Below, piece by piece: positions 19,018-53,145 of a stretch of DNA of 64,000 nt. Position numbers and translations under genes: made by a program. Within the stretch, counting starts at the first letter, position 1; the number at the start of each line of letters is the position of its first letter. The DNA comes from Tubulanus polymorphus. Taxonomy: Eukaryota > Animalia > Nemertea. The notes beneath the pieces are model-generated. The model searched no databases. It was given only the letters and a program-made list of their open reading frames with translations, and was not told the origin of the DNA. Where the stretch lies: the NCBI RefSeq assembly GCF_964204645.1, contig NC_134033.1, positions 3,930,231 to 3,994,230 of the forward strand, written 5' to 3'.

Positions 19018-19257
19018 GTACATACAAAATAGCGACCGAAAAGCTAAAAGCTCCGTCGTGGCCACTCCAGGTGCGATGTGTGGATCGGAAACACGTGGAC
19101 AGTTTGAAATCTGAGATGCTGGCACGCCCTGCATCAAACTTTATGTCCCTCGTAGGTCGTGCTACAGGGCCCATTATCTCTCCGTTAGAAAAAAATGTTA
19201 TCGAAATATTGGGTGGAAACCACACCAGAATCGCGCTACAGGAGCTTTTGATTGAAG
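19018..19257 (+). CDS. Exon 8 of the ParB-like gene, N-terminal half of the ParB/Srx-like domain
   Basis: tccgtag acceptor and gtgcgt donor. Encodes LQVRCVDRKHVDSLKSEM...IEILGGNHTRIALQEL, matching the ParB pattern (R...l..l..si ... hydrophobic strand-G-x-H-R/T-helix). Confidence 0.8.
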
Positions 19258-19432: not shown

Positions 19433-19468
19433 GTGCTGATCCGAATCATTATGGTTCAGCGATGGTAC
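19433..19468 (+). CDS. 5' part of ParB-like exon 9, upstream of the LTR insertion
   Basis: ttgcag acceptor. Encodes (G)ADPNHYGSAMV and joins in frame to 34533 once the element and one GTAC are removed. Confidence 0.8.
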
Positions 19469-20729
19469 TGATACACCGGTCACAATCCTCTCCTTAATCG
19501 TTGAATATAAAAACGTAAAGATCGGTCCCTGGCGAGAGAACGTGTCCGTGCACAAACCCAAATAATTAAACTAAAATGCCGAAATTCTGATTGAATATAA
19601 TAATAATAAAATGGATTTTATTTACCTTGATAATAGTAATATCTCCAGTACACAGTCCAATTCCTAACTCCAAATTCCTATTGTACACTACTGTTGGTAA
19701 CCCGTCCTAATTCTGGTATTTCCACCCAAATCTCAAGTATCTTTAACGAGCGTCCCTGGTAAGTCTGCTTTCTCAAGACTGCGGGCCTCTTTTATGGAAA
19801 AGATCGGCATTCCTAGAATGCCGACTCTCCCGTTCGACTTTTGGCAAGGAGCAGCAACCTAGCTGTCATGACGGTTTTGGACATGTAGAATTAGCCTTAA
19901 TGATTCGCTAATCTAAAATTATTTGAGAAACTGATTTGCCAAAGTAACTTTTCTTTCCAACCCTCCTGTCATAACGCGCTTTGATTTACTCACTCCCTAC
20001 TCATCATCGTTGAGAGAGCAGCTATTCTCTACGAGTTACCAACAGACATGTACACCAACAGAAACCTTAGAGAGCTAGTATTGATATTTGCCACAATTAA
20101 ACTTCCATAAAACTTAAGCGATTATAAAGGTCTTGTCCTTAATTAACATCCAGGATACTTAATTTAGATATATTTTCAAAACTTAGTTTTCACCTAGATT
20201 ATGGAACAAACTCATCGTTTCTTTTTCCAATCAACAATAGTAAACTTTTGATTCAGAAATACAATGTAATTAATTATCAAATCTAAAATCATTCTATACT
20301 TATTATACCAATTTTCATTTATAATTTAACTAACTCTATAATACTACAGGATAAAGCAAAACAACCATGTCTCCCTATACTTCCGGTTCTTCCTTTTATA
20401 GAAAGTAGTCGGGAGTATCAAGAAGTAACAGCGAGATCCCTGCACAAACCACACTATCAAAGCACCTCATCGTTCCGACCCAACCAATTACGTCTATCCT
20501 TAAGTTTTTAAAAATAATTCTGAATGTTTGCCAGATATCGACGCACAAGAACCGAGGAAGAATTATTTTTACCCCTGGCTGATTTGTTGTCAGCGCTGGT
20601 AGATCAAAGCATCAAACAACAACTTGCACACATCGTTTGCTGTCTGATACCCATAAAGAAACCACCAACGTAAACAAAAACCATCATTACAAACATTTTT
20701 TAGTTACTACGGAATCTTGCTGCGGATCA
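19469..20729 (-). repeat. 3' LTR (1261 bp)
   Basis: Starts tgatacaccggt and ends gcggatca. Matches 33261-34528 apart from a 4-bp indel, a 3-bp indel and one substitution that I could see. Minus-strand AATAAA near 19617-19622. Confidence 0.97.
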
Positions 20730-20742
20730 TCACTCCCTATCC
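20730..20742 (-). promoter_or_regulatory. Polypurine tract
   Basis: Minus strand reads GGATAGGGAGTGA immediately before the 3' LTR. Confidence 0.85.
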
Positions 20743-22215
20743 AGTTTAAATTTCGTCCCGAAATTTTGAATTTAACCCAACTCGTGAATATCCCGCTGAT
20801 ACCTCTAGAACAAATCCTGAAAAAGAACATTAGTAAACAATTCATTATAACGAGTAACGAGTTTGACACTACAACGCATATTAAAGTTCATGATATAGTA
20901 TATCATAAAACCGCATTTAAAGTTCCGGATACCCAATCGGAAAAAAGTTCATTCGAGACCGCTGTCCCCGCACACTAAACACTCGAAAGTTAAGCACAAA
21001 ACAGTTCACAGTTTGAGTTTAGAATTTACCGCGAAGTGACGCAACAGCTACCAGACACAACAAGGTACGTCATGGACGGACGAATGACGTCATCCACCGC
21101 AGTTCCTCGAAGCGCGTACTGCTACGTTGATAGTACGGCAAAACACATTTATGTTCAGCTGAATACTTGCTCGCTATTCATAGACGCTATAGTACTACGG
21201 TTACTATATCGGAGTCTTTTCTCCACAGTTAATATAGAAACGGAACAGTAATGTATTCGCATCTTACGGCTTGAGCGAACAACATTCCATCGAATGTTAA
21301 TGTAACTACACGGGAGCCATCTTGAACACACTCGGCTTTACTCCGCTAAAATGTCTACGGAAATTATCACTTTTCTTCACATTTCGTATCGCATTGGCCA
21401 GGTGTCTTTGTCCACCCTTCATCACTTAAGTTTGTGAGTATATAGCAAGTCTTCGAGAGTGACAAACACCACTAACAATGGCAAGAATCGCATGACGAAT
21501 CATCGAGCATGATTCCATCCCGTTAAAACCAACGCCCAAAGTTCGCTGTTGTATGTCGTATATTCGCTCCGTTTCTTCGTTATTTGACGAATCGGCAAAT
21601 TAATATCACTCATCTCGACCAGAGCATACCAGTTGTTGGTTTATCATACTATCAATTGCGTCGAATAGAGTCTCAGGATACCTCCCAACAAGTCCCCATC
21701 TCCATATGGTCACTATCAGGGGGGTACCCGTCGACATCTATTGCGGTTGACAGAAGAAGGCATTCTTCCATCAAAGTGCTGTCATATCTCGACGGTCCCA
21801 TCTTCACACATCCGATAAGGGTACCTTACAATCAAATAAAAACACAGAGATTATATAAAAATTTCATAACTCTTCCTTTTCTATCTGACAATTAACAAGT
21901 TCTACTCAGACTACGGATAATAAACACTGGAGATTATTGATATTACGGCGATAGGCCAATAACACGACAGTTAAACCTATAATCTATGTTTATTTTATGG
22001 TTGTCTTTATCTCACATAACTTAAAGGCTTAATAGTACTTATTCCTAATATATTTGTGTTTCATCATCATATAATAACAACTTTCCGACAATTTTGCAGG
22101 ACATATGCATCCTGACCTTATTACTGATTAAATTATACTTACGTCAAATCCAATGAGGGCATTCGAGCACCCTTATTCAGAATAGCTACTCTTAAATAGC
22201 TTTCAAATACTGCCC

Positions 22216-24849
22216 TCAGTACAGATATGGGTACAGCCTACTGGCATCAGCCAATAGCGAATTCCTGGGAATCCCCACCGAATAGTCTGGTGGCGACAGA
22301 TCGCCGCCAGGGGAAGCTGTGAGTGCCAGTATACCGGGCCCATGCTCAGTCCGAGCCTCATCATGTATAACCACGATCTCGGGTTCCACTGACGAAACTG
22401 TCAGCTGGGTCGCTTCTCGTAGTTCGGTAGTAAACGACCGATAAACCGCAACAACCACAACCTTACTCGGAACTGACACGAGCTGTCTCATCGTGAAGAG
22501 ACTTACTCGTAGGGGAACCGAGCAGGAAGTCGGCAGATTATACATCGTCCCTTGCGAACAAGTCAGTTGCTTAGTCTGCCAGGTTAAGTTCAAGCGGGCG
22601 ACTCCACAAACGACTCGTAACGCAACCTTAGTAAGAGCTGGAGGCTCGAAACAACATCTCGTTTCACAACCGGACAATGTTAGTAGAGGCAAGTCCAATG
22701 TCTGAATTCCATTCTTAAGCCTTATGGCTAGCCTAACCGGATATTTTCCCGGTGAACAAGGTGCAGGCAAACAGTGTCGGCACCTATAGCACATAGCACG
22801 CAATAAAGGTCTGAACACAATTATAACTATACCTACTACAATAACTAAGAACAGGACGACATCGACGCGCACATTCTTGGCTGTGACAACCTCCCGAATG
22901 ACCGTATTATTCCAGCCACCTCGTTGTAGGTCATGGATAGCGGGGTGAACAGTCACCATAGCTTCAGCGGTCGGAAGAAGTCCTGCTCCCAGAATTGATA
23001 AGGACCCTTGCGACTTTAGCAAAACGAATATTGAGAGCAGCATGCTGCCCGCAGAGAGACCAATAGCGAGCCAAGTGAGCCACCCTGTACCGGTTCCAGA
23101 CGAAATAACAGGTTCAGAATGATCAAATAAAGCGTCTGCTTGCGATCGGTACAGTTTAGCGTCAGTTTGAACGGTTCTTGCTAACTTTTTGAAATCCATG
23201 CTAAATTTAGTGTCCACCGCAGCCACTTTTGACCAGTTATTAGCCTTGAAATCCAGACTAGGCAGCGGTGCGTATGGCGTTCCCTGGAACATTGTTGCTC
23301 CAGTAACGTTGGACACTACATTCTTTGAAAAGAAACTATGTAGGACTGGTAAATTAACAGCGTGCGCAATGGTCACCGTGTCTTGGTTAATACATTTGTT
23401 AATTCTACCGGGCACAAAAAATTTTGATCCACGCAATGCACATGCACACCCAATTTTTACCAAACAAAAACGACATGCTTTTATTGCTTTTGGTGACTTG
23501 CCAGGGCAGGCGAGAGTCCAAAAATCGTCAGTGCCTGAAACAACAAAATAGCCATCCCCTACGTCGACTGCCAGTTCGGCCAGGCCCTGGACCTCATACC
23601 GTATGTGGCATAAGGCTAGCACCTGTGAGGGTTTATCGAAGAAAAGGCTACTCAGGCATGATTCTACGGTTGCTTCGCGCATGGACACGCGCTGCCGGCA
23701 AGTCATCACATCGGTTCCATAACAAGTAGCAAATATATCGTGACCCATTTCAGTGTAGTAACTACCGTCCCTAGTAGCGCCAAAATAAGGGGCTGTACCA
23801 ACAATCATTGAAGTGTTATAGGACGTTGCGTTTATTGGCACTGGCATTAAGACAACCGAGTATAAATCAAAATATGTCTGACCAGATTGCAAGGGGATTT
23901 TGATTGATATGTAAACAAATTTATCGGTCTTAGAAAAGCACACATCCTTAACTATGTAATAATAGCCTACATCCCTATTAGCTATTGAAAACCCAGAATG
24001 CATCCTATTTAATTTTTCGGACACATCGTCAAGAACCTTCGAAACCATTTTTGGATTAACCAGGGCTCTAGGCAAATATCCCTCCAATAACTTTTCAACC
24101 CCCTGCAACCACTCACTGGAAACTGCCGTCAGTCGTTCCACTAGGATGATATTTCTTATTGTCATGTCAGACGCCAATGCTAGCATACTCGCATCGACAC
24201 TTTGCTTTAGCAGTGTCGTTCGAATTGATTTAAGTTCTTTTGAATTGGCCACGTATGCAGAGGTCAGGCTACTGATTCGTTTGTCAGTCGCGTTAATAAA
24301 TGAAGAGAGTGTCCCCTGTATGTGGGTGATTTGATCCGAATTCAACTTGACTATTTTTTCTACTTTTTCGACGTGATTTTCTACTTGCTGAACTTCATCT
24401 TCGGTAGCAGTACCGAACAAGGAAGACGAAATCGATCCGATAAATGAAAGTGGTGCACGTTTGACCCTGCGCCCACTGGCGTGTCGTTTCTTTCGTGAGT
24501 CGGTATCTGCAGCATCAGGTATCATTTGTCTCATATCAGCCAATTGTCCCCTGATATGGGTCAACGTGTCTAACTGTAGGCGATGCGCCTCACGAAACAT
24601 TTCCAAATAGCCGGAGCAGTGAGAACGAAGTTCTGGCTGGACAAGAGAACAGCGTAGCCGCAAGCCTTTACTCGGGGGGTCATTAACAACTAGCCATGGT
24701 ATCGCGAACGTGTGAAACCAGGCACTGTCGCCATTATGGACTCCTCCAATCCGATGAAAGGCGACACCATAGTTTGGCCTCAAGACCGTCGAGGGCATCA
24801 GACAATAGGCCGACGACCATGTGGCCACCAAGATTACGACAATTTGCAT
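22216..24849 (-). CDS. env: Envelope glycoprotein, class I fusion (errantivirus env / baculovirus F-like), ~877 aa, with C-terminal extension
   Basis: Signal peptide MQIVVILVATWSSAYC, furin site RRVKR followed by fusion peptide APLSFIGSISSSLFGTA, heptad repeats, Cys-rich ectodomain, TM WLTWLAIGLSAGSMLLSIFVLL. The ATG at 24849 directly follows a tttttcag acceptor with a TACTGAT branch-point-like motif, implying a spliced mRNA. Confidence 0.92.
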   Translation of the reverse strand: MQIVVILVATWSSAYCLMPSTVLRPNYGVAFHRIGGVHNGDSAWFHTFAIPWLVVNDPPSKGLRLRCSLVQPELRSHCSGYLEMFREAHRLQLDTLTHIRGQLADMRQMIPDAADTDSRKKRHASGRRVKRAPLSFIGSISSSLFGTATEDEVQQVENHVEKVEKIVKLNSDQITHIQGTLSSFINATDKRISSLTSAYVANSKELKSIRTTLLKQSVDASMLALASDMTIRNIILVERLTAVSSEWLQGVEKLLEGYLPRALVNPKMVSKVLDDVSEKLNRMHSGFSIANRDVGYYYIVKDVCFSKTDKFVYISIKIPLQSGQTYFDLYSVVLMPVPINATSYNTSMIVGTAPYFGATRDGSYYTEMGHDIFATCYGTDVMTCRQRVSMREATVESCLSSLFFDKPSQVLALCHIRYEVQGLAELAVDVGDGYFVVSGTDDFWTLACPGKSPKAIKACRFCLVKIGCACALRGSKFFVPGRINKCINQDTVTIAHAVNLPVLHSFFSKNVVSNVTGATMFQGTPYAPLPSLDFKANNWSKVAAVDTKFSMDFKKLARTVQTDAKLYRSQADALFDHSEPVISSGTGTGWLTWLAIGLSAGSMLLSIFVLLKSQGSLSILGAGLLPTAEAMVTVHPAIHDLQRGGWNNTVIREVVTAKNVRVDVVLFLVIVVGIVIIVFRPLLRAMCYRCRHCLPAPCSPGKYPVRLAIRLKNGIQTLDLPLLTLSGCETRCCFEPPALTKVALRVVCGVARLNLTWQTKQLTCSQGTMYNLPTSCSVPLRVSLFTMRQLVSVPSKVVVVAVYRSFTTELREATQLTVSSVEPEIVVIHDEARTEHGPGILALTASPGGDLSPPDYSVGIPRNSLLADASRLYPYLY

Positions 24850-24895
24850 CCTGAAAAATAGGGATAGCAAGAATCAGTAATCTCGAAACCACGTA

Positions 24896-27800
24896 CTAGT
24901 CGTCTCTTTCTCGACGTCTCTTCTTATTTTTACGAGTTTTTCGCTTCACTTTAGCGGCATGGTCATCCCAATAGGCTCGAATGATTTCAGGAGGCAGGTT
25001 TTCGGCTGGCTCAAACGTGTTCTCATTATCGTCATAGCCAACCCATTTTATAAGATATTTCAGAATGCCTTTCTCTTTTTTGTGACGAATCACTCGTTCT
25101 ACATAATAGATTGGCTCAACCGGATTCGCAGGCTGATTTTGATCGCCCGGATCATCCGGTGCGAGGACAGGCCCCTCCTCAGGTTGATCCCCGTCCTCCC
25201 TGTCAATAGGTGGATTCTCAGGTATGTCGTCCTCGAGCGGCCTAATGTCCGTTGAAAAGAAATGCTTCATTCTATTACAATGTACTGGGACGGCCAACTC
25301 TTGATTCCTCTCATTCTCCAAAATGAAAGATACAGGAGAAATCTGTCGGACAATTCGATAAGGGCCCGTCCATTGATGAAGCAATTTCTTACTAAGCCTC
25401 TTTATTTTCTTTGGAGTGAATAGCAACACTTGATCACCTACTGCGAAATTTGGGGGAACGGCAGTCCTGTCGAAACGTTCCTTCATCTTCTCCTGCGCCT
25501 TTTTGATATTAGCATTGGCCAACTTCCTGGCCTCTTTTAACTTTGGCAACATTGCTTGGACAAAGCCTCCCGCATCAAAGTAAACGTCCCTCGGATTAAG
25601 TAAAGCAACGTCCATCGGCAACCTCGGTTCTCGGCCATACATGAGGTAGAATGGCGAGTATTGCGACGTATCCGAAGCTGGACTTACCCGATATGCAAAT
25701 AGAATGGGGTAAAGGTATTCGTCCCAATCGGTTTGGCGTTCATTGCAGTACATGCTCAGAGCCTTAACAATCACAAGATTCATGTGCTCGACTTGTCCCT
25801 GAGTTTGTGGTCTATACGCACTGGACCGTGCCCGTGGCGTATTACATAGCCGCGAAACCTCGCTGACTAATTTACTCAGGAAATTTGTTCCGCGATCGCT
25901 CTGCAAAACAGAGGGCGCCCCATGGCGACAAATGATTTGTTCATAAAAGATCGTAGCGACCGTCGTGGCTTCTTGATTAGTCATAGCAAAAGCTTCAACC
26001 CACTTTGTAAGATAGTCGACAAAGACCAATATGTATTTATTTCCCGAGTCCGTTGTTGGAAAAGGACCACAGACATCCATTGAGACTCTATCCCACGGCC
26101 CTGTGACAGCTATGGGGTTAACCGGGGCCCTAATGGGCTTCCCTGGCTGATTCTTAGTCGCACAGTCCTTACAGGATTTAATCCAATTTTCAACGTCTCG
26201 ATACATACCATGCCATTAATACCTTGCTCGCAAGGTTTCGTAGGTCCGTTTGTGACCCAAGTGACCGCCAGTCATTGAATCATGACCAGCCTCTAACATT
26301 TCCGCATACATACTTTTAGGTATGACCAACTGACGAGGCCCATCAGCCTCAATTTTCTTTTTAGAGTCCACATGGTAAAGAACTCCATCATCGTCAACAA
26401 AGAAGTAGTCTGACTGCAAAATAATTCTCCGGGCTTCCTTGTCGTCATCTGGCAAGGTACCATCAAGTAAATAGTCTATAAGACACACTAATTGTAAATC
26501 AGACCGCTGGAGCTCGCCCATGTTGACGGGTACAGGCCACTCATTGTCAGCCTCGAGAGCACACGTGTCGATAGTGTCTTCCATACTATCAGAGATGGGA
26601 TACGGGCGACGAGAGAGCCCATCGGCGTTCCCGTTTGCCTTGCCTGGACGATGCGATATGGAGTAGTCAAATTGCTCTAAGTAGAGTGCAATACGGCCAA
26701 CACGACCCGAAAGTGTTTTCATGGTCTGAAGATACCGTAAGCAACTGTGGTCTGTGATAATCTCAAAATGATATCCCCGTAAGTAGGGTTCAAACTTTTT
26801 GACTCCTGCTGCAACAGCTAAGAGTTCACGGTCCGTTGTAGAATAATTTTTCTCCGCTTTATTCAATCCTCGCCCCGCATATGCAATTGCTCTTTCTTGC
26901 CCATCCTGGACCTGCGCCAGGACCATGCCGATACCTTCATCGGAGGCATCAGTATATAATAAAAATGGCGATGCCCCATAAATGGGGAAGGCCAATACTG
27001 GGGCTTCGAGCATCGCTTGCTTAAGGGTGTCGAAAGCCTGTTGACAAGAAGCGTCCCATCTATACGGCACGCCTTTCTTAGTCAACTGGTGTAAGGGGGC
27101 CGCCATAGTGCTGTAACCTTTACAAAAACGCCGATAATAATTGGTGAACCCCAGAAAACTTCGTAGTTCTTTTAAAGTCGTGGGGACAGGCCATTCCTGT
27201 ACGGCTGCTACCTTTTCCGGGTCAGTAGCGATCCCGTCCTTAGATATTCGATGCCCAAGGAAGTCAATGGTTTTGACAGCAAACCGACATTTCTTGGGAT
27301 TTAGGCGAAGGCCTGACTCACGAAATCGATCGAAAATTTGAGCCAGGTGAATTAAATGACCATCAAAAGAATTCGAGTAACAGATAATATCGTCCAAATA
27401 TACTAGACAAAATTTCCCAACCAAGACTCTCAGCAGACCACCAGTCAACCGCTGAAAGGTAGATGGCGCCGATTTCAGACCAAATGGGAGTACCTTAAAT
27501 TCCAAAAGAGACGACTGTGTTATAAAAGCAGTCTTATCCCTACTGGCCTCGTCAACTTCAACTTGCCAGTAGCCACTCAGAAAATCAAGTGAGCTAAAGA
27601 ATGTAGGTGCCGCTTGACCAACCTGAGCCAAGAGATCATCGATTCTAGGCAGGGGAAAAGAGTCTGAACGGGTGACAGCATTCAATCCCCGATAGTCAAC
27701 ACAGAATCTCCACTTGACATCTCCGTCCGGGCTCTTTTTCCGAACGAGAACGACCGGGGCAGCCCATGGGCTAGTACTATGCTGTACTATCCCCATGTCT

Positions 27801-29992
27801 AACATCTGTTTGACATGCGTGTCAATAACTTCTTGCATGGCCGGAGAGGCTCTATAAGGCCTTTTCCGAATTGGGGCCGCGTCCCCTGTGTCAATGACGT
27901 GTTTGACTAAGTCAGTTTTACCAAGTTCGTCCGGTGTTCGTGCAAAAATGTCCCGATACGATCGTATTAGTTCAAGAAGTTCCGCTTTCTGTGATACAGA
28001 AAGGTCCGAGTCTGACATATCTATTTCCGGTATCCCAATGTCAGCAGATGTCTGAGGGTAGTCCACATGTGTGACAGACACCTCTGGAGGTCGGGTCAGC
28101 TGTCCCGAATTCCCTTCATTCTTCAGGGATTGGTCAAGTGACCACCCATCTGTCCATAAGTGGCCAAGACACATATCCTCATAGAGGGTGACATGTCGTG
28201 ATGTGGGATTCATGACCCGAACCGGAATGCCTGATTGCGTAACGTCGACAACTGACCTTGCACTCATAAGATCATGTGCCCTTAATTGATTTGCCGGCTC
28301 AAAGACTGCCACCGATGCTTGTGTCCTGTCAATCGAGTACTTTCCGTCTATGATGGCCTCACACGAGGGGGGAATGACAGTCATTCGCGTAACCTTGACG
28401 GACGAAGATTTGCCCAAATTGACAGTATTGTTGAAGTAAATTGCATCGGCCCCTGGTAACAAAAGGGCCTTTCTTGCATAATCAATAACTGCCTGGTTTT
28501 GTTCCAAGAAATCAGCTCCAAGAATTACATCGGACGTGATACCGTCTACCACGTACATAGAGTGCGTAATTTCCAAATTGCCTAACACAAAATCCACACA
28601 AATAACTCCTCTCAGGTCAAATTTAGTTCCATCTACCCCACGGGCAGATTGGAATTGACCGACCTGCAAAGGGCCATTTGATATCTGAGGATGAGTCGTA
28701 AAATAATCGTTCGATAATACAGATATTTCGGCGCCCGTGTCGATCAAAATACTTAACGGTGTCCCCGAATGGCTACCTGTCACTCGGTTAGCGACAGTTG
28801 CCATGATCGACGGGGAATAAACCTCTTGTTCAATAGCATTATTCTGACTAGAAAGAGACCATATGTCGTTGGTTGGCGTGTTACCTAACGTCGTCGTAAT
28901 AGGTGGAAGTTGTTCCTGATAGTGAATAGTAGGTTGAAACTCGGAGTTCGAATCTCCTATTCCAACATTGTCGTTGGTTGGCATAATCGGTTCAGACGTG
29001 GGGACAACCTGACCTCTGTCCTGTGCGTTGGACATTTCATTACTGATTGGTTGATGAAAACCGCTGGTATTCGAGGTGACAGGACGATCCCGTTCTTTTT
29101 CGAATAACTGACAACAATTTTTTTTTGTTGACACCTGATTTGATACATTTGATACGACAGTCTCCGTATCATGATGATCATTACGACATTCCGACCGTGA
29201 ACTTTTATTACTTAAATCAACTGACACTAGGTCACATTGTACCGCTGATTCGGAAGTTACCGGGTACTTATATTGATCAAGAGTGCGTTCGTGACAATTC
29301 AATTGAGACTTCTTATCTCTAAAAAGGTCATCTTCTGCCGAATCCGTCGGACCATTAACCCCTCTAGAGTGTGACCTATCAACACTAATATTGTCACCCG
29401 AGCACGCCATATCTGCACGTACCTCCTGCAATTCAACCGGATCGCTAAATGTGACCCTCCTGTGTCTCTTTACAGGCTCTCTAGTAACCGACAACTGGGA
29501 ATTATTCATCCAGCTGTCCTCAAAATTGGATCCCCGATCCATATAAAAATTTCCATCAAACGACAACTGGGTATTGTCCCTCCAGCTGTCCCCAAAGTTA
29601 CGATCTTGAATGTCATAAACGTCATCGGCACCCCATGAATGAGTGTGATAATCAATAAACTTATTTAAATGTATAGGTTCATTTTCATCTAAGTAATCTA
29701 CATTACAGTTCCCCTCAGGTTCAAAATAAAGAGAAAATGAGTCAGCTAGCATGTTGCCCTGATCAAATGACATGTCGAATATATCATCCCTATCGTCCTC
29801 AAAATAATCATCAACATCATTAAAAATATAATCGTCGATTACAGGACTGTCATCGTCATATCTATGATATGAATATGAGTCGTCCCACCAAAAATCACTC
29901 CTTATCGCCGAATCGGGCGAGGGCTCTGTTGACCATTCATTGCGCGACCCCACCCTTGTCGGTCCATAGGATGAGGTCCCCGGTCGTTTCCC
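24896..29992 (-). CDS. pol: Pol polyprotein: long acidic N-terminal region, aspartic protease, RT, RNase H, integrase, chromodomain; in-frame TAA at 26218-26216
   Basis: LIDTGAEISVL (protease); WRFCVDYRGLN, LPFGL and YLDD (RT); LYTDASD and ITDH (RNase H); HDSMTGGHLG...CKDC plus the DDE core (integrase); YYVERV...YLIKWVGYDDNENTFEP (chromodomain). ORFs 29953-26216 and 26206-24896 share a frame across RY*WHGMY. Confidence 0.95.
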
Positions 29993-31061
29993 TGACTAAA
30001 TGTTCGATTAGCCCCTTGGGAACCACGTCCAATATTCTGTGACCGAAACTGGCCCCGACCATAGTTCTGGGGACGGCGATTATCACGCTGAAATGCGTCC
30101 CGGTTTGGCGAGACCCGCGACCTTTGTTGGTCGTAACGCCAAGTTGGACAATTCCTGGCGTAATGACCGGGGGCGTGACATTGGTAGCACACCACCTGCC
30201 CATCTTGCGACCGTTGTGATGGACGGTTCTCGCTATAATAAGTACCCCTATCATCCCGCTGAGTTCGGGTAGACTTTTGTGTGTCCATGATTTGGCGGAA
30301 CATGTCCCGTAGCTCGTCATGACATCCCCTATCGCCTTATTTGGTTCGGTCCCAATTTGCGATATCTTGGGAGACGACAGGGCCTTTCGTTGTTCGATAT
30401 GTTCAGCCATTATGGCTGCCTCCCATGCATCCCTAAAAGTTGTTGGACGTTGCGACAACAGATAGACTGAAATGTCAGGCCGAGAGTTATTGATCAATAA
30501 CATCTTTTTCTGGTGGTCCGAGAACTTCAAACTTGAGGCCACCCGATCAATTTCCTCCGCAAACCTATCGACCGGTTGCGTTTCCCCCTGTCGCATTGTC
30601 GTCAAGGCCGACTCCTTGACCAAGGCCCACGAGGTAGGGCTAAATTGCGTGCAAAATGCATGGACAATATGCTCCCAGGGAGTGGTAATTTTTGTGCCGG
30701 TCGAATCGGTCGCCTGATCAATGCGGAGGTCATTGAATAGAACTAGGGCTGGGCCAGCCAAAAACCAATACAACTGTTTCTTTTTGGCATTTTCGTCCCA
30801 GCCTCTCAGATCGGCCAAACGATTGAACCCTCTGAACCAATCAGAGACGCACTGACTGTCTCGTCCTGTAAATTTCGGGAGCATGGAAAAGTTCATAAAC
30901 GCGGTGGCCGTGTCCACCTGTTCGCGTAAGCCCGAGAGGGCCTCTAAAACCGTGCCATTGCTAATTGGGGGGTGACCCTGTGGGCTCCCTCCTGTAGAGG
31001 TTTGCCCCTGCAAGCCACCCGCATCGTCCGACCCGTATGTTGTCCCGCTTCTAGTTGCCAT
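29902..31061 (-). CDS. gag: Gag (capsid plus CCHC nucleocapsid) with an apparent 1-nt deletion near 30318
   Basis: Retrotransposon gag-like motifs (LPKFTG, WDENAKK, MRQGETQPVDRF) lie in ORF 31061-29937. The zinc knuckle CYQCHAPGHYARNC and an RG-rich tail lie in ORF 30303-29902. Restoring one G (ATG GAC GAG CTA CGG) fuses them into ~386 aa. Confidence 0.88.
29947..29992 (-). promoter_or_regulatory. -1 programmed ribosomal frameshift signal (gag-pol)
   Basis: Slippery heptamer G GGA AAC (29992-29986) in the gag frame, a 7-nt spacer, then an 11-bp stem GACCTCATCCT/AGGGTGGGGTC. The -1 frame is open into pol (GKRPGTSSYGPTRVGSRNEW). Confidence 0.8.
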
Positions 31062-31119
31062 TTTCTAAACCAGAGTAATCAAATTATTATTATTCCTACG
31101 ATGATGCTACTTTTAAATT

Positions 31120-31917
31120 CTAAACCTGATCCTGGCGATCAGCCCAACAAAGTAGGTTATCCCAAGTACGGGCAACCTCCTCCACCGTAATCTCTTCCCT
31201 TAAAAATGACGAAAGAATGTCATCAATCTCCTCAAAAATCCACGAAGTGCAAGGGCCAAGGGCAGACTGACTTTCAGAAAATCGGCCTATACCCCCGCTG
31301 GGCGACAGATCCAACGATTGGTCACCCGCAGACGCACCTAAGGACAGGTCTACTGGAAAACTTTGGACAGGTGCGCCCAAATGTCCGCCCAACAGTTGGC
31401 CCGCTACAGGCGTAACAATTGCTAATGGTCTGTTTAAAGATCGAGTTGCAGACAGGTCTGCCGGTTGCTCTGAGTCGAACTGATCAATCCCTATAGGTGA
31501 ACCAGGCGGCACCGAACAACAGCATGAAAAGCTTGAGTCGCTGGAACCGGTTGATCCAGCTGATGACGGCGGCCGTGTGAAAGGTTCACCAGTCCGTATC
31601 GAGCTATTTCGGTTCGAATCCGTACCCGAAGGACTTAGGGGCGGAGAAGGGGTCACTGAAGACGAGCAAGTACAATTTACCTGGTCCTGAAAAACCGCTA
31701 ACGTTGGGCACTCACAATACAAACAACTATCCAAAAAGTCAAAGTCTGAAGACTGAGAAGTTGGAGTCCCAGCACTGGTCCCAGGGGAAGCAGTTATGAT
31801 GGTAGGTGTTGCGGGTGCTAAACTCACAGTAGTGAGACACCTTTTTCGGGGTAGTGTACTCCAATAACCAGTGCTACGACGTTTGTTTGTGCACCTTACC
31901 GGAATCGACCCCGACAT
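31120..31917 (-). CDS. Accessory ORF3 of the retroelement (265 aa, Ser/Pro-rich, three PxDLS-like motifs, acidic C-terminal helix)
   Basis: Intact ATG-initiated ORF on the element sense strand, bounded by AT-rich spacers, directly upstream of gag. Contains PADLS, PVDLS and SLDLS. Confidence 0.6.
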   Translation of the reverse strand: MSGSIPVRCTNKRRSTGYWSTLPRKRCLTTVSLAPATPTIITASPGTSAGTPTSQSSDFDFLDSCLYCECPTLAVFQDQVNCTCSSSVTPSPPLSPSGTDSNRNSSIRTGEPFTRPPSSAGSTGSSDSSFSCCCSVPPGSPIGIDQFDSEQPADLSATRSLNRPLAIVTPVAGQLLGGHLGAPVQSFPVDLSLGASAGDQSLDLSPSGGIGRFSESQSALGPCTSWIFEEIDDILSSFLREEITVEEVARTWDNLLCWADRQDQV

Positions 31918-32009
31918 TAACGTACTAACTTACAAATAATAATCACCAAAAAGAAAATTATACAATTCGAGTTTAATTGCTTATTATAATTTCAATAAAT
32001 AACCCCAAT

Positions 32010-32450
32010 TTAATCAAAGTAGCTGTATATTCGCGACTTATCAGCCAACAATACGTTATGGTCAGGGATAGCACATAAACTGAAATCCCCCTGATCCCAG
32101 GTAGACGTATAAGTATTAAGCCCGCTGGGTGGAGGGTTCGAATCCCTCAGAGTCTGTCCGACCGCTCCGTCGTTATTGGTACCCTTTGTGCTGAGTGGGT
32201 TTGAATCCCACAGTGGCTGTTCAACAGCTCTGTCGTTGGTAATACCCTTGATGCTAAGTGGGTTCGAATCCCACAGTGGCTGTTCAGCAGCTCTGTTGTT
32301 AGTGGTCCCCTTGGTGCTAAGTGGGTTCGAATCCCACAGTGGCTCCCTTAAATGAGCTGGTACCTCCCAACTAGACTTGGGGACTGGGGCAAGCGTGTGC
32401 GTCTTGGACACCGTTGCCCCACAGTAACCACGCCTCAACCCAGCTGACAT
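32010..32450 (-). CDS. Accessory ORF2 (146 aa, 4 x 21-aa L[WR]DSNP repeats)
   Basis: Intact ORF with a 63-bp in-frame repeat. Shares WEVPAHLREPLWDSNP with FEIPVEFREPLWDLNP of ORF1. Confidence 0.55.
   Translation of the reverse strand: MSAGLRRGYCGATVSKTHTLAPVPKSSWEVPAHLREPLWDSNPLSTKGTTNNRAAEQPLWDSNPLSIKGITNDRAVEQPLWDSNPLSTKGTNNDGAVGQTLRDSNPPPSGLNTYTSTWDQGDFSLCAIPDHNVLLADKSRIYSYFD
32132..32337 (+). repeat. Four tRNA T-arm/B-box palindromes at exact 63-bp spacing
   Basis: gagggttcgaatccctc 32132, gtgggtttgaatcccac 32195, gtgggttcgaatcccac 32258 and 32321. Confidence 0.92.
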
Positions 32451-32544
32451 GTATCAATCACAAACAACACCAAATATTTTTCACAAATAACAATCAGGCA
32501 ATCATAAAGTTAACAATTGACTGGTACTATAAGACCCCCTTAGT

Positions 32545-33201
32545 CTATGCTGGACAAAGGAAATAGCCGTCAGCGTCTTTATCACCAAAGAACAACTCGG
32601 CCGGGTTTGCAAAATCACGAACAAAATGTGCCCAAAATGGGTCGAATTTCTCGGGCACTTTCACTGGCTTTACCCTTTGCCGGCGTTCGAGAGGGTTTGA
32701 ATCCCTCGAGGTGATCGAAGCTTCGCGCTGAGTGTCGGTCGGGTTAGAATCCCGTAAAGGCTCAGCAGATACGGCCAAAGTCAGCAGTGGGTTCGAATCC
32801 CACAACGGCTCCCGATACTCTTCCGGGATTTCAAATGGCTGTGCACCTCTGGGGTTCGAATCCCGCAGTGTCTCAACAGGGTCGACCGGAGTTGGCAGTG
32901 GGTTCAAATCCCACAATGGTTCCCGAAACTCGACCGGAATTTCAAATGGCTGTGCACCTCTGGGGTTCGAATCCCGCAGTGTCTCAACAGGGTCGACCGG
33001 AGTTGGCAGTGGGTTCAAATCCCACAATGGTTCCCGAAACTCGACCGGAATTTCAAACGGTTTGGTATTAGGTGGGTTCGACCCCCACAATTTCTTTTTG
33101 TATGTTGAGTTGGTTGTAGTGCGGCGCTTCTTAGAGAATGCGTTCCTCGCACCACAGTGGGAGCATACGAAGATATGAACCATTTGAACAAAACTAAACA
33201 A
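32545..33201 (-). CDS. Accessory ORF1 (218 aa, or 212 aa from the ATG at 33183; N-terminal CxxC, basic patch, 8 DSNP-type repeats)
   Basis: First ORF after the PBS. Contains CSHC and KKRR; repeat periods of 48 and 63 bp are multiples of three. Confidence 0.55.
   Translation of the reverse strand: MFSFVQMVHIFVCSHCGARNAFSKKRRTTTNSTYKKKLWGSNPPNTKPFEIPVEFREPLWDLNPLPTPVDPVETLRDSNPRGAQPFEIPVEFREPLWDLNPLPTPVDPVETLRDSNPRGAQPFEIPEEYREPLWDSNPLLTLAVSAEPLRDSNPTDTQREASITSRDSNPLERRQRVKPVKVPEKFDPFWAHFVRDFANPAELFFGDKDADGYFLCPA
32691..33088 (+). repeat. Eight tRNA T-arm/B-box palindromes with 48/63-bp spacing (111-bp higher-order repeat)
   Basis: Motif starts at 32691, 32739, 32787, 32850, 32898, 32961, 33009 and 33072; core GGGTTCRAATCCC. 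Confidence 0.92.
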
Positions 33202-33240
33202 TTAATGTAAAAAGTTTATCGTAAACCGAAGATTATTGAT

Positions 33241-33259
33241 ATCCCGGGTTTCGGCACCA
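33241..33259 (-). promoter_or_regulatory. Primer-binding site for tRNA-Phe(GAA)
   Basis: Minus strand TGGTGCCGAAACCCGGGAT, 1 nt inside the 5' LTR boundary. Complementary to the 3' end of eukaryotic tRNA-Phe (...ATCCCGGGTTTCGGCACCA). Confidence 0.93.
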
Positions 33260-33260
33260 A

Positions 33261-34528
33261 TGATACACCGGTCACAATCCTCTCCTTAATCGTTGAATAT
33301 AAAAACGTAAAGATCGGTCCCTGGCGAGAGAACGTGTCCGTGCACAAACCCAAATAATTAAACTAAAATGCCGAAATTCTGATTGAATATAATAATAATA
33401 AAATGGATTTTATTTACCTTGATAATAGTAATATCTCCAGATAGTACACAGTCCAATTCCTAACTCCAAATTCCTATTGTACACTACTGTTGGTAACCCG
33501 TCCTAATTCTGGTATTTCCACCCAAATCTCAAGTATCTTTAACGAGCGTCCCTGGTAAGTCTGCTTTCTCAAGACTGCGGGCCTCTTTTATGGAAAAGAT
33601 CGGCATTCCTAGAATGCCGACTCTCCCGTTCGACTTTTGGCAAGGAGCAGCAACCTAGCTGTCATGACGGTTTTGGACATGTAGAATTAGCCTTAATGAT
33701 TCGCTAATCTAAAATTATTTGAGAAACTGATTTGCCAAAGTAACTTTTCTTTCCAACCCTCCTGTCATAACGCGCTTTGATTTACTCACTCCCTACTCAT
33801 CATCGTTGAGAGAGCAGCTATTCTCTACGAGTTACCAACAGACATGTACACCAACAGAAACCTTAGAGAGCTAGTATTGATATTTGCCACAATTAAACTT
33901 CCATAAAACTTAAGCGATTATAAAGGTCTTGTCCTTAATTAACATCCAGGATACTTAATTTAGATATATTTTCAAAACTTAGTTTTCACCTAGATTATGG
34001 AACAAACTCATCGTTTCTTTTTCCAATCAACAATAGTAAACTTTTGATTCAGAAATACAATGTAATTAATTATCAAATCTAAAATCATTCTATACTTATT
34101 ATACCAATTTTCATTTATAATTTAACTAACTCTATAATACTACAGGATAAAGCAAAACAACCATGTCTCCCTATACTTCCGGTTCTTCCTTTTATAGAAA
34201 GTAGTCGGGAGTATCAAGAAGTAACAGCGAGATCCCTGCACAAACCACACTATCAAAGCACCTCATCGTTCCGACCCAACCAATTTATACGTCTATCCTT
34301 AAGTTTTTAAAAATAATTCTGAATGTTTGCCAGATATCGACGCACAAGAACCGAGGAAGAATTATTTTTACCCCTGGCTGATTTATTGTCAGCGCTGGTA
34401 GATCAAAGCATCAAACAACAACTTGCACACATCGTTTGCTGTCTGATACCCATAAAGAAACCACCAACGTAAACAAAAACCATCATTACAAACATTTTTT
34501 AGTTACTACGGAATCTTGCTGCGGATCA
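33261..34528 (-). repeat. 5' LTR (1268 bp)
   Basis: Direct repeat of 19469-20729, adjacent to the PBS and followed by the GTAC TSD. Confidence 0.97.
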
Positions 34529-34532
34529 GTAC

Positions 34533-35501: not shown

Positions 35502-35671
35502 GTCGTTGATTATGATAACGTGATAATATTTCTAATTATATTAAAAGCTAAAAGCTTCGTCTTGGCCACACCAGGTGCGATGTGTGGATCGGAAACACGT
35601 GGACAGTTTGAAATCTGAGATGCTGGCACGCCGTCGTTGATTATGATAACGTGATAATATTTCTAATTATA
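35502..35671 (+). repeat. 90-bp copy of ParB exon 8 (source 19039-19128) flanked by a 39-bp direct duplication
   Basis: 35543-35632 matches 19039-19128 with 3 mismatches. gtcgttgattatgataacgtgataatatttctaattata occurs at 35502-35540 and 35633-35671. Confidence 0.93.
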
Positions 35672-37845: not shown

Positions 37846-39024
37846 ACTCGATTTTTGATTTTCGATTTCTAAATTAATTTATATTGTCGTATTGTTTTGC
37901 TTATATTACATGTCTCGGTAAACTATATTATGACGGCTTTCTGACTGCTAACTACCACACAACAGCTGTCGGTGTTAGCTCATTTATACGTTTTATTTTT
38001 AGTCCTGAATTTTCCGTCTATCAAACCTTTGCGAAATCATCGAATAGACCGTATCTTATATAACATTACACTGCATGATTAATTTGGTCCCAGTAAGCCA
38101 AATCAACTAAATTGTCGTCGAAACGTATCGGAAAAAGGAAAGCTGCTGTAAGGAGCTAAGATTTCATGATCGGTTTTAATACTACTGTTCTGCCTCTTAT
38201 CGGGAAGTTTTAAAACCACTTTTTGAGACAAATCGTAGATAAAAATTGAAAAGGTGAAATAAGATATTGCTGTTGACGTCATAAGCATTATTCATGTACA
38301 CCCTATGGATATTCTCTTGTTTTAAAGTATACATTCAGATATTAATTCCACTATACTAGCATTGAAACTTCATCGGTAAATCCGTACACCGTATTTTGGA
38401 TATGACATATATATATATATTTTCTGGAATCGTAATATACAAGGTTTACTGTAGTGTGTAAGGAGCACATCAATGTCTCATTCATTTTTGTTGAATTATG
38501 TGCGCTTGATTGAATTGTTTCTATATTTGGATTTGGGTAGTTTACTTACAATGGGCTTGTCCGTAATGTTTTTCTTTAATTTTAATCCCTTATCGATTTT
38601 TGATTGTATATTGCAATTTTGTGTGTTTGTATATTGTCCTTTTCCGATAACGACCCATGATGGTTTCCTTTGTGGCCTAGCTTATGATAGACTTATGATA
38701 GCCCACGATTAGCATTATTGTCGTATAGAAGTTTGTAAAGTACTTTCACCAGAAGATCTGCTGTTTTTGGATATCCAATTCTTAGTTTTAAAAGTATCTA
38801 TTAAGCCTGATTATCTATCATACATGTATTCCATAAACCATGGTGGCTTTTTCAACTGTTTTTTCATCCGCGGCTCAAATGAGCTGAGGACTCAAATCCT
38901 CCTATCAAAATTACTAATCTTGAATGAACGTTTTAAAATGCGTCCTGAAATCTGGTGCAGAAAATACTAAAATGAGTTTCAATACTGGAATCGAATGATT
39001 CATTAAGTGATCGTTTTAGAACGT

Positions 39025-39860
39025 TAGAGTCCTAGGACGCAATTTAGTAAAATGAGTCTCAAGACTCGCATCTAACGATGAATGAGTCCTAGGACGCAAT
39101 TTAGAAAAGCAGATACTAAAATGAGTCTTAAGACTCGGATCTAACGATGAATGAGTCCTAGGACGCAATTTAGTAAATCAGATACTAAAATGAGTCTCAA
39201 TACTCGAATCTAACGACGAATGAGTCCTAGGACGCAATTTAGAAAAGCAGATACTAAAATGAGTCTTAAGACTCGGATCTAACGATGAATGAGTCCTAGG
39301 ACGCAATTTAGCAAAGCAGATACTGAAATGAGTCTTAAGACTCGAATCAATAGATGAATGAGTCCTAGGACGCAATTTAGAAAAGCAGATACTAAAATGA
39401 GTCTCAAGACTCGAATCTAACGATTCAAACCAGTGAACGTTTTAGAATGAGTCCTAGGACGCAATTTAGTAAAATGAGTCTCAAGACTCGCATCTAACGA
39501 TGAATAACGTTTTAGAATGAGTCATAGGACGCAATTTAGAAAAGCAGATACTAAAATGAGTCTTAAGACTCGGATCTAACGACGAATGAGTCCTAGGACG
39601 CAATTTAGAAAAGCAGATACTAAAATGAGTCTTAAGACTCGGATCTAACGATGAATGAGTCCTAGGACGCAATTTAGAAAAGCAGATACTAAAATGAGTC
39701 TCAAGACTCGAATCTAACGATTCAAACCAGTGAACGTTTTAGAATGAGTCCTAGGACGCAATTTAGTAAAATGAGTCTCAAGACTCGACTCTAACGATGA
39801 ATGAGTCCTAGGACGCAATTCAGAAAAGTAGATACAAAAATGAGTCTCAAGACTCGATTC
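39025..39860. repeat. Irregular minisatellite, ~69-bp unit with two palindromes
   Basis: The unit alternates GAGTCCTAGGACGC and GAGTCTTAAGACTC (perfect 14-bp palindrome). Degenerate copies extend from about 38880 to 40030. Confidence 0.9.
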
Positions 39861-40211
39861 TAATTTCTTATCATATCAATATTGCAATTCCTAAAATGCA
39901 TGTTTTAAGACCCGATACAAATAATACCTCGAACTAATTTTTGAAAATGCGTCCTGAGACTCAATGTCTTGTATTAACTACAAAACTGGAATCATGTAAC
40001 CCGATTGATTGAGTCTCAGGACTCAAAGCTCTTGATTTTGTATGTAAGATTCTGTTTTATGTGAACTAATAAATGTCATTTTTACTGTATTGTAGACGCG
40101 AATCAGTTGTTTTTGGGTATGGAGAAGTGTATTCTGTGTTTATATTCATATTGCAGGAATTAGGACTAAAAAGGGAACTAAAAAGAAATTCCCTTTTTAT
40201 TTGGGAAGGCC

Positions 40212-41039
40212 TTATATTTTGTAAACTTGCACAAGTAACTGCGACTTAAACCAAGATCTACTTGAAATGAATTCAATACGTGCTTTATTAGTTTTAGTAT
40301 AAAACGATGAAGGTGGATGTCCGGTTTGTTCTCGTATAAGAGCTATAGGTTCACTGGTGCTGTTCCATCCGTCGTACATTTGAGGACGAGTTTTCATTGG
40401 ATCCTCACCTGGTTTTAATCTGAAATCTATCTGTATAAACGTTAAATTCATTGCAAACCCGTCTGGCATCTCGATCCATTCTAACAACAATTTACATCGC
40501 CGGATAGAAATCATAAATTCATAACCTGTTTGAGTTGGTAATTCTTTTACCGCACGCTGTGAGCATTTATGTACGATTTTCAAGCGACTCTGTTCTTCAA
40601 AACGATATATGATATAAACCCGACTACCTCGCGCTCCATCGACGTTACTCCTAAACAACAACGCAATCAAATCGTTCCTGCGGATATCTAGTTGTTTTCT
40701 TCCGGTAGCGCAGAGTTTGTTGTCGGACTCACCGACGAGAAGGTAGTTTTCGTTACAGAATATCGACGGCTCGATGTCGTAGTAAACTTGAACGAGAAAA
40801 CTTCCCGGTAAAGAGCTGTTGACGAACCAACGACATTCAACACCGCGCACTAACGACGGATAGTTCGGTGAAACGATGTAACCAGACGTAGAATCGACGG
40901 AGTATTGAGTGTTGTTACAAGATGAACTGACTGTAACAGACGCGGCTTCCTCGATAGAGTTTGCGCGATCAGCCCGCATAAATATACAGTCTCCGCAAGC
41001 GATCAGTAAAACTACGAACAACGCTTTCATTCGCTGCAT
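40212..41039 (-). pseudogene. Truncated 5' copy (signal peptide, CUB region) of the GRL101-like receptor gene
   Basis: About 40215-41835 is homologous to about 50580-52215. Homology ends abruptly at about 40214, where the junction creates a TAA. Confidence 0.85.
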
Positions 41040-51100: not shown

Positions 51101-51407
51101 CGACGAGAAGGTAGTTTTCGTTACAGAATATCGACGGCTCGATGTCGTAGTAAACTTGAACGAGAAAACTTCCCGGTAAAGAGCTGTTGACGAACCAACG
51201 ACATTCAACACCGCGCACTAACGACGGATAGTTCGGTGAAACGATGTAACCAGACGTAGAATCGACGGAGTATTGAGTGTTGTTACAAGATGAACTGACT
51301 GTAACAGACGCGGCTTTCTCGACAGAGTTTGCGCGATCAGCCCGCGTAAATATACAGTCTCCGCAAGCGATCAGTAAAACTACGAACAACGCTTTCATTC
51401 GCTGCAT
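45178..51407 (-). CDS. GRL101-like (LGR type C) GPCR, ~1950 aa: signal peptide, CUB domains, C-type lectin domain(s), ~7 LDLa repeats, LRRs, 7TM
   Basis: Three phase-0 exons (51407-50178, 49880-48528, 48447-45178) with GT-AG sites. CUB motifs SGYIVSPNYP and GLVQSPNYP; CTLD IGLNWQ/NDGYYTWTDGKPLSYTEW spans intron 2; LDLa DCxDGSDE; LRRs; FCC hinge; NPLLY. Confidence 0.9.
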
Positions 51408-52403
51408 ATTGAACACAATTCACGCTTCAAAACAAACACATTTCTAACTATTTCCAAGTTTGCGCGATATTTCTCATAAGAGTCGCTGCAAAGTAATGAC
51501 GAGTTGTCAGAATGTCAGAAGTTGACGAATTGATCGAGTCTAATTATTTTGTAAAAAGATCTCCCATCAAACTGGCGCCAGTCTCGTATTTCTCGTTACT
51601 TTCACCTGCGCTCGGTTTCGCTGTAATTACCGCGGTATCTAAATTTAAACATGTTTAAATATATATTGTGTTTATAATCATGTGCAATTATTTCTCTAAA
51701 AATATTTACTGTCACTCCCGAACTGCGTTCAGTTTGTGATAATATTCGATGACATTTTCTATCTATACCTCAAAATATTCTGCGTCTCTGTAAAACACTT
51801 CGTCAATATCTGTTTGGACTAAATTCGCTCTACACTCAATATAATAACTGAGTTGAAGCTAAGTGAAGCGCATGGATATCTGATTGTGGTGAGTAATAGG
51901 TCTTGTTCGGTACAGATTGTTTTGAAGAAACAACAGCAACCAAGTAAGACGGGGATGACAGCGGTAGAATAGAAACAGAGAAATGTTAGGAATCTTTAGT
52001 TAGGAAACTGTTGCAATAACCCCGGCGAGAATCCGACTCGCGCACTCTGATTCGGTCCGTTCTAAATTTGTCCCGTTCCGGACCCGGACCCGTTTAGAAC
52101 GGTCTAACTGGTTCGTAGTGTGAACGCGACGAAATTCCAACCAATAATAAATGAGGTGAATTGATAATTCCGAAACTTCTGATCATCATTTAAAAACGTT
52201 TAATTTGACTCAATTTAGATTAGTCCAATCTAGCAGAGAGGCAGCTGTGATGAAGTCTTGTTAACCTGTCGCGAAAAAGACTCCATTAGAACGATAACCG
52301 CACTCAAACGTGGTGAACGGATAATAAGATAAAAACCCACTATCTACAGATTAAAAGATTTTAAAAACAAGAATTTATTCATTAAATCTAAAATATATAT
52401 AAG

Positions 52404-53073: not shown

Positions 53074-53145
53074 TCCCATATGGTCTAGTGGTTAGGATTC
53101 CTGGCTTTCACCCACGCGGCCCGGGTTCGATTCCCGGTGTGGGAA
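53074..53145 (+). tRNA. tRNA-Glu(TTC), with one C:C mismatch in the anticodon stem
   Basis: TCCCATA...TGTGGGA acceptor stem, A box TGGTCTAGTGG, anticodon loop CTTTCAC, B box GGTTCGATTCC, T5 terminator at 53152-53156. Confidence 0.92.

Follow-up and report, generated by a model that had tools for sequence, protein, structure and literature searches.

The chromodomain-bearing errantiviruses of Cnidaria, Mollusca and Annelida (Chary and Hayashi, eLife 2026, PMC13524379) are among the closest described systems to the element reported here. At least seven elements of that paper (Cari_2, Cari_4, Csin_3, Dpol_2, Gtel_3, Dlin_6 and Gmag_4) combine a chromodomain with an F-type envelope gene (ENV_F); the combination is thus already published, and a sequence-only reading of our locus, which took errantiviruses to have env without a chromodomain, has to be corrected. 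It also took accessory genes as the mark of complex vertebrate retroviruses, to which two Ty3/gypsy systems are counter-examples: the MDG1 group (412, mdg1, Stalker) has sORF1 and sORF2 upstream of gag, on unspliced RNA according to long reads (10.1101/2025.03.14.642691), and Cer1 produces from a spliced mRNA the Rev-like, Cys-rich nuclear protein CERV, needed for export of the genomic RNA (PMC10309623). For errantiviruses, a 2012 review gives accessory genes as not shown; it also describes the Drosophila gypsy insulator, whose 12 Su(Hw) sites occupy the 5' untranslated region (PMC3383448). In the S. pombe IR (inverted repeat) boundary five B-boxes contribute, without tRNA genes, and help to block the spread of heterochromatin (PMC4502379). 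The element described here lies in a 64,000-nucleotide stretch of the Tubulanus polymorphus genome (Nemertea; GCF_964204645.1, contig NC_134033.1, positions 3,930,231 to 3,994,230 of the forward strand), hereafter the window, whose numbering is used throughout. It is of the Ty3/gypsy type, 15,060 bp long and on the minus strand (19469-34528), in the order long terminal repeat (LTR), primer-binding site (PBS), three open reading frames (ORF1, ORF2, ORF3), gag, pol, env, 1.49 kb of non-coding DNA, polypurine tract (PPT) and LTR; every part named by the sequence-only reading was found in its place. The explanation which we favour, with slightly more confidence than doubt, is that of a recently inserted and already broken copy of a chromodomain element with F-type env, in which the three leader frames are likely selected accessory genes, and the repeats of ORF1 and ORF2 carry on the plus strand an array of tRNA T-arm/B-box motifs that would serve as a TFIIIC-bound chromatin boundary.

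The class itself, an F-env, chromodomain-bearing Ty3/gypsy element, is assigned with high confidence. The element shares with the chromodomain-bearing "ancient" errantiviruses the gag-pol-env order, an env of the F type that bears furin site and fusion peptide, the chromodomain after the integrase, long LTRs (1.1-1.6 kb in three of the chromodomain elements listed in PMC13524379) and a short bridge between RNase H and integrase. It differs in its leader: the available text of that paper has no mention of accessory or upstream-of-gag ORFs, and the distance from PBS to pol is about 3.25 kb here versus 0.8-1.9 kb in the ten mollusc rows with a PBS among 15 rows of that paper, if its coordinates begin, as we infer, 5 kb before pol. 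The six tRNA-Phe rows found there include none from a mollusc, annelid or cnidarian. With the MDG1 group the element shares the Ty3/gypsy type and apparently selected accessory ORFs lying after the 5' LTR and before gag, MDG1 sORF1 being nuclear; MDG1 elements however have no env, and their two ORFs measure roughly 110 and 70 residues, sORF2 being a membrane fusogen, whereas here three ORFs of 146-265 residues without a membrane helix accompany env and a chromodomain. Membership of MDG1 (two sORFs of 60-130 residues, one with a membrane helix, no env) is excluded by ORF sizes, hydropathy and env. Cer1 is likewise a Ty3/gypsy-type element with an accessory protein, but CERV lies where env would be and has exons in common with gag, and the likeness is one of description, not of sequence. 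Like the gypsy insulator, the element has a dozen or so repeated, here putative, factor sites immediately after the 5' LTR, and like the IR boundary it has clustered B-boxes without tRNA genes; both of these are non-coding, whereas the sites described here overlap frames that appear to be selected and retain the full T-arm stem. Three probably selected upstream genes in an env-bearing element were not found in the literature listings, whose scope did not include supplements on MDG1-like sORFs, which may list others.

The leader of 2.2 kb harbours three open frames:

32545-33183, minus strand: ORF1, 212 residues, with an N-terminal CxxC, basic patches and 111-nt repeats (63+48)
32010-32450, minus strand: ORF2, 146 residues, with 63-nt repeats, a paralogue of the ORF1 repeat region
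31120-31917, minus strand: ORF3, 265 residues, Ser/Pro/Thr-rich, with basic N-terminal patches, Cys clusters and a predicted C-terminal helix pair

From several lines of sequence evidence, ORF1-3 are likely real genes. The spacers are indeed short and AT-rich (22-32% GC vs 51-52% in ORF1-3), with an ATG straight after each, and in shuffled leaders two ATG-ORFs of at least 140 residues occurred in 0/1000 and one in 16/1000 cases, the shuffle ignoring repeats. No Pfam family was found above cut-off and no NCBIfam family for any of the three, ORF3 had no match at E<=1 among 1636 candidates, and a single match of ORF1 to a HEAT-like repeat protein (1.7e-5) was dismissed as a repeat artefact. As homologues are missing, the coding test was based on sibling copies, represented by reads and contigs of three runs over 31062-33262. 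Out of 498 variable sites the 40 best supported were used, which left 32 in ORF1-3 after subtraction of seven repeat duplicates and one spacer site. Eighteen of these 32 differences are synonymous, compared to 29% expected (p=0.001), with 10/17 in ORF1, 4/7 in ORF2 and 4/8 in ORF3, and in the other two frames 5/32 and 7/32. The units of ORF1 and ORF2 are identical at 6/11 residues before the hairpin described below, five of the six by different codons, and the spacings of the motifs inside both ORFs (63 and 48) are all multiples of three. The frame is kept at 8/11 sibling joints of known length, four of the eight linking motif to motif, where it is kept trivially. At one joint (36-37 reads) an ORF2-type repeat follows in frame on the initial 22 codons of ORF1, which suggests that modules are shuffled among families.

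Some observations weigh against coding. The 32 sites are not independent, 12 coming from one 66-nt stretch, and stem from the best-supported rows only; 3/11 joints are out of frame, in one sibling contig the 5' part of ORF3 shows a net change of -4, and 8/136 reads have a 2-base insertion in ORF2. Read depth over ORF2-3 is about 30-90, versus up to about 390 over gag (85% likeness), from which it follows that most gag relatives carry a very different leader or none. It could be argued from such frameshifted siblings, from the lack of Pfam, NCBIfam or database homologues and from the two antisense frames over the ORF1 repeats, likewise open for 116-148 codons, that ORF1 and ORF2 are not genes and that GC-rich repeats of a non-coding B-box array leave the frame open by accident. 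We regard this as very unlikely, since the synonymous excess is confined to the annotated frames, the paralogous peptide is conserved despite changed codons, the motif spacings are in threes, and the start codons stand right behind the spacers. As to the products, all three are Ser/Pro/Thr-rich proteins without a membrane helix (maximum hydropathy 1.14), ORF1 and ORF3 have basic patches and Cys motifs, and a single-sequence model of ORF3 (pLDDT 44) contains the C-terminal helix pair only; judged by composition, ORF1 and ORF3 probably encode disordered regulators acting in the nucleus.

Read on the plus strand, the sequence coding for the repeated peptide core of ORF1 and ORF2, W/R-D-S-N-P, spells a tRNA T-arm/B-box:

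32689-33090, plus strand: eight T-arm/B-box motifs, antisense to ORF1, at 63/48-nt spacing
32130-32339, plus strand: four T-arm/B-box motifs, antisense to ORF2, at 63-nt spacing
31606-31626, plus strand: a single T-arm/B-box motif, within ORF3

Exact B-boxes number ten on one strand in 31611-33085, compared to 0.71 expected for the whole window. The 13 motifs have a 5-bp stem and a 7-nt loop, with 92% of cells paired and three pairs showing double changes; this covariation was equalled by 3/500 shuffles, and slid registers fall short. The pair made by the first base of the Trp/Arg codon and the free third base of the Pro codon is T-A in seven copies, A-T in two, C-G in one and mismatched in two, and the single mismatched stem pair of two copies (sites 32851 and 32962) is paired in 123/164 and 30/53 sibling reads. 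Codon choice is fixed within the motifs, Asn being AAC in 13/13 (22/51 elsewhere) and Asp being GAT in 12/12 (45/87 elsewhere). Between ORF1 and ORF2 the codons of the hairpin do not differ synonymously, whereas the sites immediately upstream are saturated, which argues for two overlapping codes, and motif variants changing the residue (Ser to Leu, Asp to Gly) retain the B-box. From these patterns we consider it probable, less firmly than the coding of the frames, that the array is under nucleotide-level constraint.

No A-box-like site lies upstream of any of the 13 motifs, ARAGORN finds no tRNA gene within the element, and the top Rfam rows of the tRNA clan score far under the gathering threshold, so that these are B-box-only sites. 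A tRNA gene or tRNA-derived short interspersed element was ruled out, as the cloverleaf with A- and B-box is not present, and RNA polymerase III (Pol III) transcription of the array was dismissed on the missing A-box match. Clustered B-box consensus sequences without A-box or tRNA gene are the sequence pattern of TFIIIC B-box boundaries, and by this analogy the array may be one, which we propose tentatively. We prefer it because it would explain the consensus on the non-coding strand, the missing A-box and the position behind the promoter of a chromodomain element; as a DNA site, moreover, the array would not need an antisense RNA.

Several points limit this proposal. TFIIIC requires the C56 base of tRNA, and the equivalent base is changed in 3/13 motifs with the stem retained, while TFIIIC is not known to require stem pairing outside the B-box. 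An RNA hairpin or a tRNA relic would account for the stem covariation just as well, and it is for this and the C56 losses that the boundary is given only tentatively. The motifs are also paralogues, so that their counts overstate independence, and relatedness by itself can outdo shuffles in the covariation method. Among the metagenome loci compared (the best 80 of 574 reverse transcriptase (RT) relatives, with RT identity of 39-54% and in most contigs little DNA before gag), none had similarity to ORF1-3 and none had two or more B-boxes, which is a weak test.

The hairpins could instead act as RNA, ORF1-3 being genes, either as stem-loops behind the PBS for packaging or export, maybe bound by ORF1/ORF2 or Gag, or as antisense T-loops. 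Compensatory pairs would be expected of such a role, as would the loop pattern T-T-N-purine-A, retained in all 13 motifs when the full B-box is retained in only ten; the location suits a packaging leader, and CERV offers the precedent of an accessory export protein for a circuit like that of Rev and its response element (RRE). We nevertheless think it unlikely: the loop resembles tRNA only on the strand opposite the mRNA, neither strand has a G-U pair by which the strand could be told, and no A-box is there to drive an antisense Pol III RNA. It is just as improbable, in our judgement, that the T-arm is neutral, the remnant of a tRNA 3' half that was copied into the leader, for example by primer over-copying, taken up in a repeat protein and homogenised by template switching, with selection acting on the proteins only and "compensatory" pairs arising by palindrome correction. 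Homogenisation does occur, as seen from reads with motif-to-motif joints between the ORF1 and ORF2 repeats, the motifs have the orientation that primer over-copying would give, and the changes at the C56-equivalent base are all synonymous; against neutrality speak the synonymous sites, frozen inside the hairpin and saturated before it, and the residue-changing variants that still keep the T-loop.

Chromodomains direct integration to silent chromatin. With its intact cage, the chromodomain found here would guide integration into methylated chromatin, where the B-box array, placed right after the promoter, would allow the element to remain expressible, in the way of the gypsy Su(Hw) sites or the IR B-boxes. 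If this were true, the element would target heterochromatin and carry its own boundary inside protein-coding sequence, and the dual-coded array would be a testable answer to how a chromodomain element landing in silent chromatin stays expressible. Three selected pre-gag ORFs together with env and chromodomain would also make it a "complex" invertebrate endogenous retrovirus. That it represents a lineage as complex as vertebrate ones, combining env and chromodomain with three spliced accessory genes, of which two are dual-coded with TFIIIC-recruiting T-arms, is doubtful as a whole. From the earlier suggestion of an undescribed lineage there remain an env-carrying Ty3/gypsy element and ORF1-3 behaving like selected genes, while the pairing of chromodomain and env is no novelty. 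An array of this kind was not found for any retroelement in literature titles and abstract openings, most subscription journals and Repbase lying outside this scope. In viral contigs the paired T-arm pattern was found at 16 phage loci, 13 of them adjoining tRNA genes, and these are unrelated.

With three ORFs ahead of gag, gag-pol, ORF3 and env would probably be made from spliced RNAs, the donor lying in the LTR, and the full-length RNA would give ORF1.

33409-33420, minus strand: candidate splice donor AAG/GTAAAT (between 33418 and 33417), a consensus match only, upstream of the PBS

This is the donor which the sequence-only reading had placed near 33415, and it overlaps the one AATAAA that follows the TATA-like box in the 5' LTR. 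An AG is located 1-11 nt before 4/5 start codons. A stricter acceptor filter was passed by 17/708 internal AGs and, among the acceptor-like sites, only by that of env and by one 99 nt before ORF2; of the two acceptors proposed earlier, that of env is thereby upheld and that of gag is not. Splicing from a shared LTR donor is, on these sequence matches, an evenly balanced proposition. The only strong acceptor is that of env, those before ORF1, ORF3 and gag, at 33194, 31925-31929 and 31065, being moderate, and ATTAAA at 32014 and 31977, right behind ORF2, resembles the unspliced arrangement of MDG1. Expression could accordingly follow the MDG1 style without alternative splicing, as MDG1 elements do (10.1101/2025.03.14.642691), with a short RNA ending at a poly(A) site after ORF2 and gag translated by internal entry or reinitiation; we give this somewhat less than even credence, the good donor upstream of the PBS and the AGs before the start codons speaking against it and ATTAAA being expected by chance in a spacer of 22% GC. 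In other respects the family would replicate like other errantiviruses, with tRNA-Phe priming, Gag-Pol made by -1 frameshift and a spliced env RNA.

The structural genes are as follows:

22216-24849, minus strand: env, 877 residues, F-type class I fusogen, with a strong acceptor AG ending at 24851
29902-31061, minus strand: gag, capsid-like part and CCHC knuckle, frameshifted near 30315 in the present copy
24896-29995, minus strand: pol frame with protease (DTG), RT (YLDD), RNase H, 92-residue bridge, integrase (D-D-E) and chromodomain
24965-25108, minus strand: chromodomain, aromatic cage complete (Y/W/Y)
29944-29992, minus strand: likely -1 ribosomal frameshift signal, made up of G GGA AAC (29992-29986, in the phase of gag) and a long hairpin behind it

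Pfam matches in the element comprise gag, zinc knuckle, protease, RT, RNase H, integrase, Chromo (4.8e-13) and Baculo_F (7.5e-10). The env protein, rightly called F-type in the sequence-only reading, is encoded downstream of pol and has furin-type sites at residues 119 and 128 and, after them, a hydrophobic stretch resembling a fusion peptide, as in the F-type errantiviruses in the broad sense of PMC13524379, whose env is homologous to the F proteins of paramyxoviruses, pneumoviruses and baculoviruses; two membrane helices and a C-terminal beta domain are predicted. It has 13 homologues, scallop and mussel among them, the best at 42%; the scallop and mussel ones, like a GRL101-like receptor elsewhere in the window, would suit a non-insect invertebrate as host. 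The top Foldseek matches of its model (pLDDT 62) are the F proteins of respiratory syncytial virus (RSV) and Newcastle disease virus (NDV), with E 7e-8 and low TM-scores, and a second structure aligner gave F chains as the longest alignments (Z 7-8), tied by helical bundles. Residues of about 590-835 (22219-23080, minus strand), after the first helix, contain a signal-peptide-like stretch, then the second of the membrane helices and a beta domain of about 110 residues with Cys; by alignment reading this region is common to 9/13 homologues, and neither Pfam nor NCBIfam has a match for it. It may be cut from the env frame as a second membrane protein.

The pol order protease, RT, RNase H, integrase is that of Ty3/gypsy, the best solved match being Ty3 Gag-Pol (9e-22), and the chromodomain is C-terminal to the integrase as in the chromodomain errantivirus clade, its Y/W/Y cage, noted already in the sequence-only reading, aligning to Y/W/F of HP1. 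The "ancient" group has one RNase H and a mini-domain in the bridge; the bridge of 92 residues here is too short for a second RNase H. Complex vertebrate retroviruses (Retroviridae) are excluded by the F-type env and the single RNase H, without tether plus second RNase H. In an RT tree of 118/120 database hits, with no named references, the RT of the element falls in an 84-tip clade (support 0.965) that holds 39/42 of the chromodomain-bearing hits, the best identity being about 55%. The pol frame has no start codon of its own and is open from 29995, in frame -1 relative to gag; the hairpin of the frameshift signal, with a fold z of -1.64, is weak taken alone.

The present copy is defective owing to the gag frameshift and a pol stop, which, like the T-arm/B-box array in ORF1-2, the otherwise sound earlier anatomy overlooked. 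The break near 30315 puts the gag zinc knuckle in a different frame from the capsid-like part; it is not shared by 210/281 reads (another sample, same species label) and is thus peculiar to the present copy or its assembly. The in-frame pol stop (26216-26218) lies within the integrase zinc finger. The copy therefore lacks the continuous gag, RT and integrase frames of an "intact" errantivirus copy, which is an inclusion filter of PMC13524379 and not a lineage character.

The ends of the element and the adjoining sequences are:

33261-34528, minus strand: 5' LTR, 1268 bp, TG..CA ends, TATAAAA at 34196-34190
19469-20729, minus strand: 3' LTR, 1261 bp, TG..CA ends
19465-19468 (left) and 34529-34532 (right), flanks of the element: target-site duplication GTAC
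33241-33259, minus strand: PBS, tRNA-Phe type
20730-20742, minus strand: PPT, short and imperfect, abutting the 3' LTR
20730-22215, minus strand: 3' non-coding region of 1.49 kb, no ATG-ORF above 59 residues on either strand

The TG..CA ends, the 4-bp duplication (4-6 bp being allowed), the PBS and the PPT are those of Ty3/gypsy (Metaviridae) elements, and the duplication and ends exclude Troyka (3-bp target duplication, CG..CG ends, as given in PMC12440569). The LTRs are identical at 1260/1268 positions, which indicates a very recent insertion; they differ by two short indels and one substitution, which sits in an upstream AATAAA (34382-34387, minus strand). The 12-nt complement of the PBS matches the tRNA-Phe type in the table of Chary and Hayashi (PMC13524379). 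Viral contigs contained no RT relative and no match to the Phe-type PBS. Both flanks of the insertion carry a 90-bp repeat, 97% identical (19039-19128 and 35543-35632), which falls within a 98-residue ORF without Pfam match.

Within the best 80 metagenome loci a chromodomain match was present in nine and an env-profile match in one. Some chromodomain-bearing RT relatives have extra ORFs after pol (L019:7401-10721, L022:7295-7780, L017:6682-9438, L036:5491-7596), encoding a GDSL esterase (L019, L022) and proteins of 528-717 residues without Pfam match, that of L019 having no sequence match among solved structures either. A gypsy-like contig (L082:231-4355) has two long ORFs (574 and 393 residues, no Pfam match) upstream of the presumed gag and pol.

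Elsewhere in the window there are:

45178-48501, minus strand: uninterrupted frame of 1107 codons, with LDLa, LRR and seven-transmembrane (7TM) domains, a GRL101-like receptor
40212-41051 and 50160-51419: duplicated CUB-bearing fragments near this receptor
54062-56998: inverted-repeat-bounded 2.9-kb unit with a 77-bp tandem array, resembling a non-autonomous DNA transposon
1-6640: near-identical tandem duplication, 4.85 kb
38949-39871: 69-bp satellite
53074-53146: tRNA-Glu(TTC) gene

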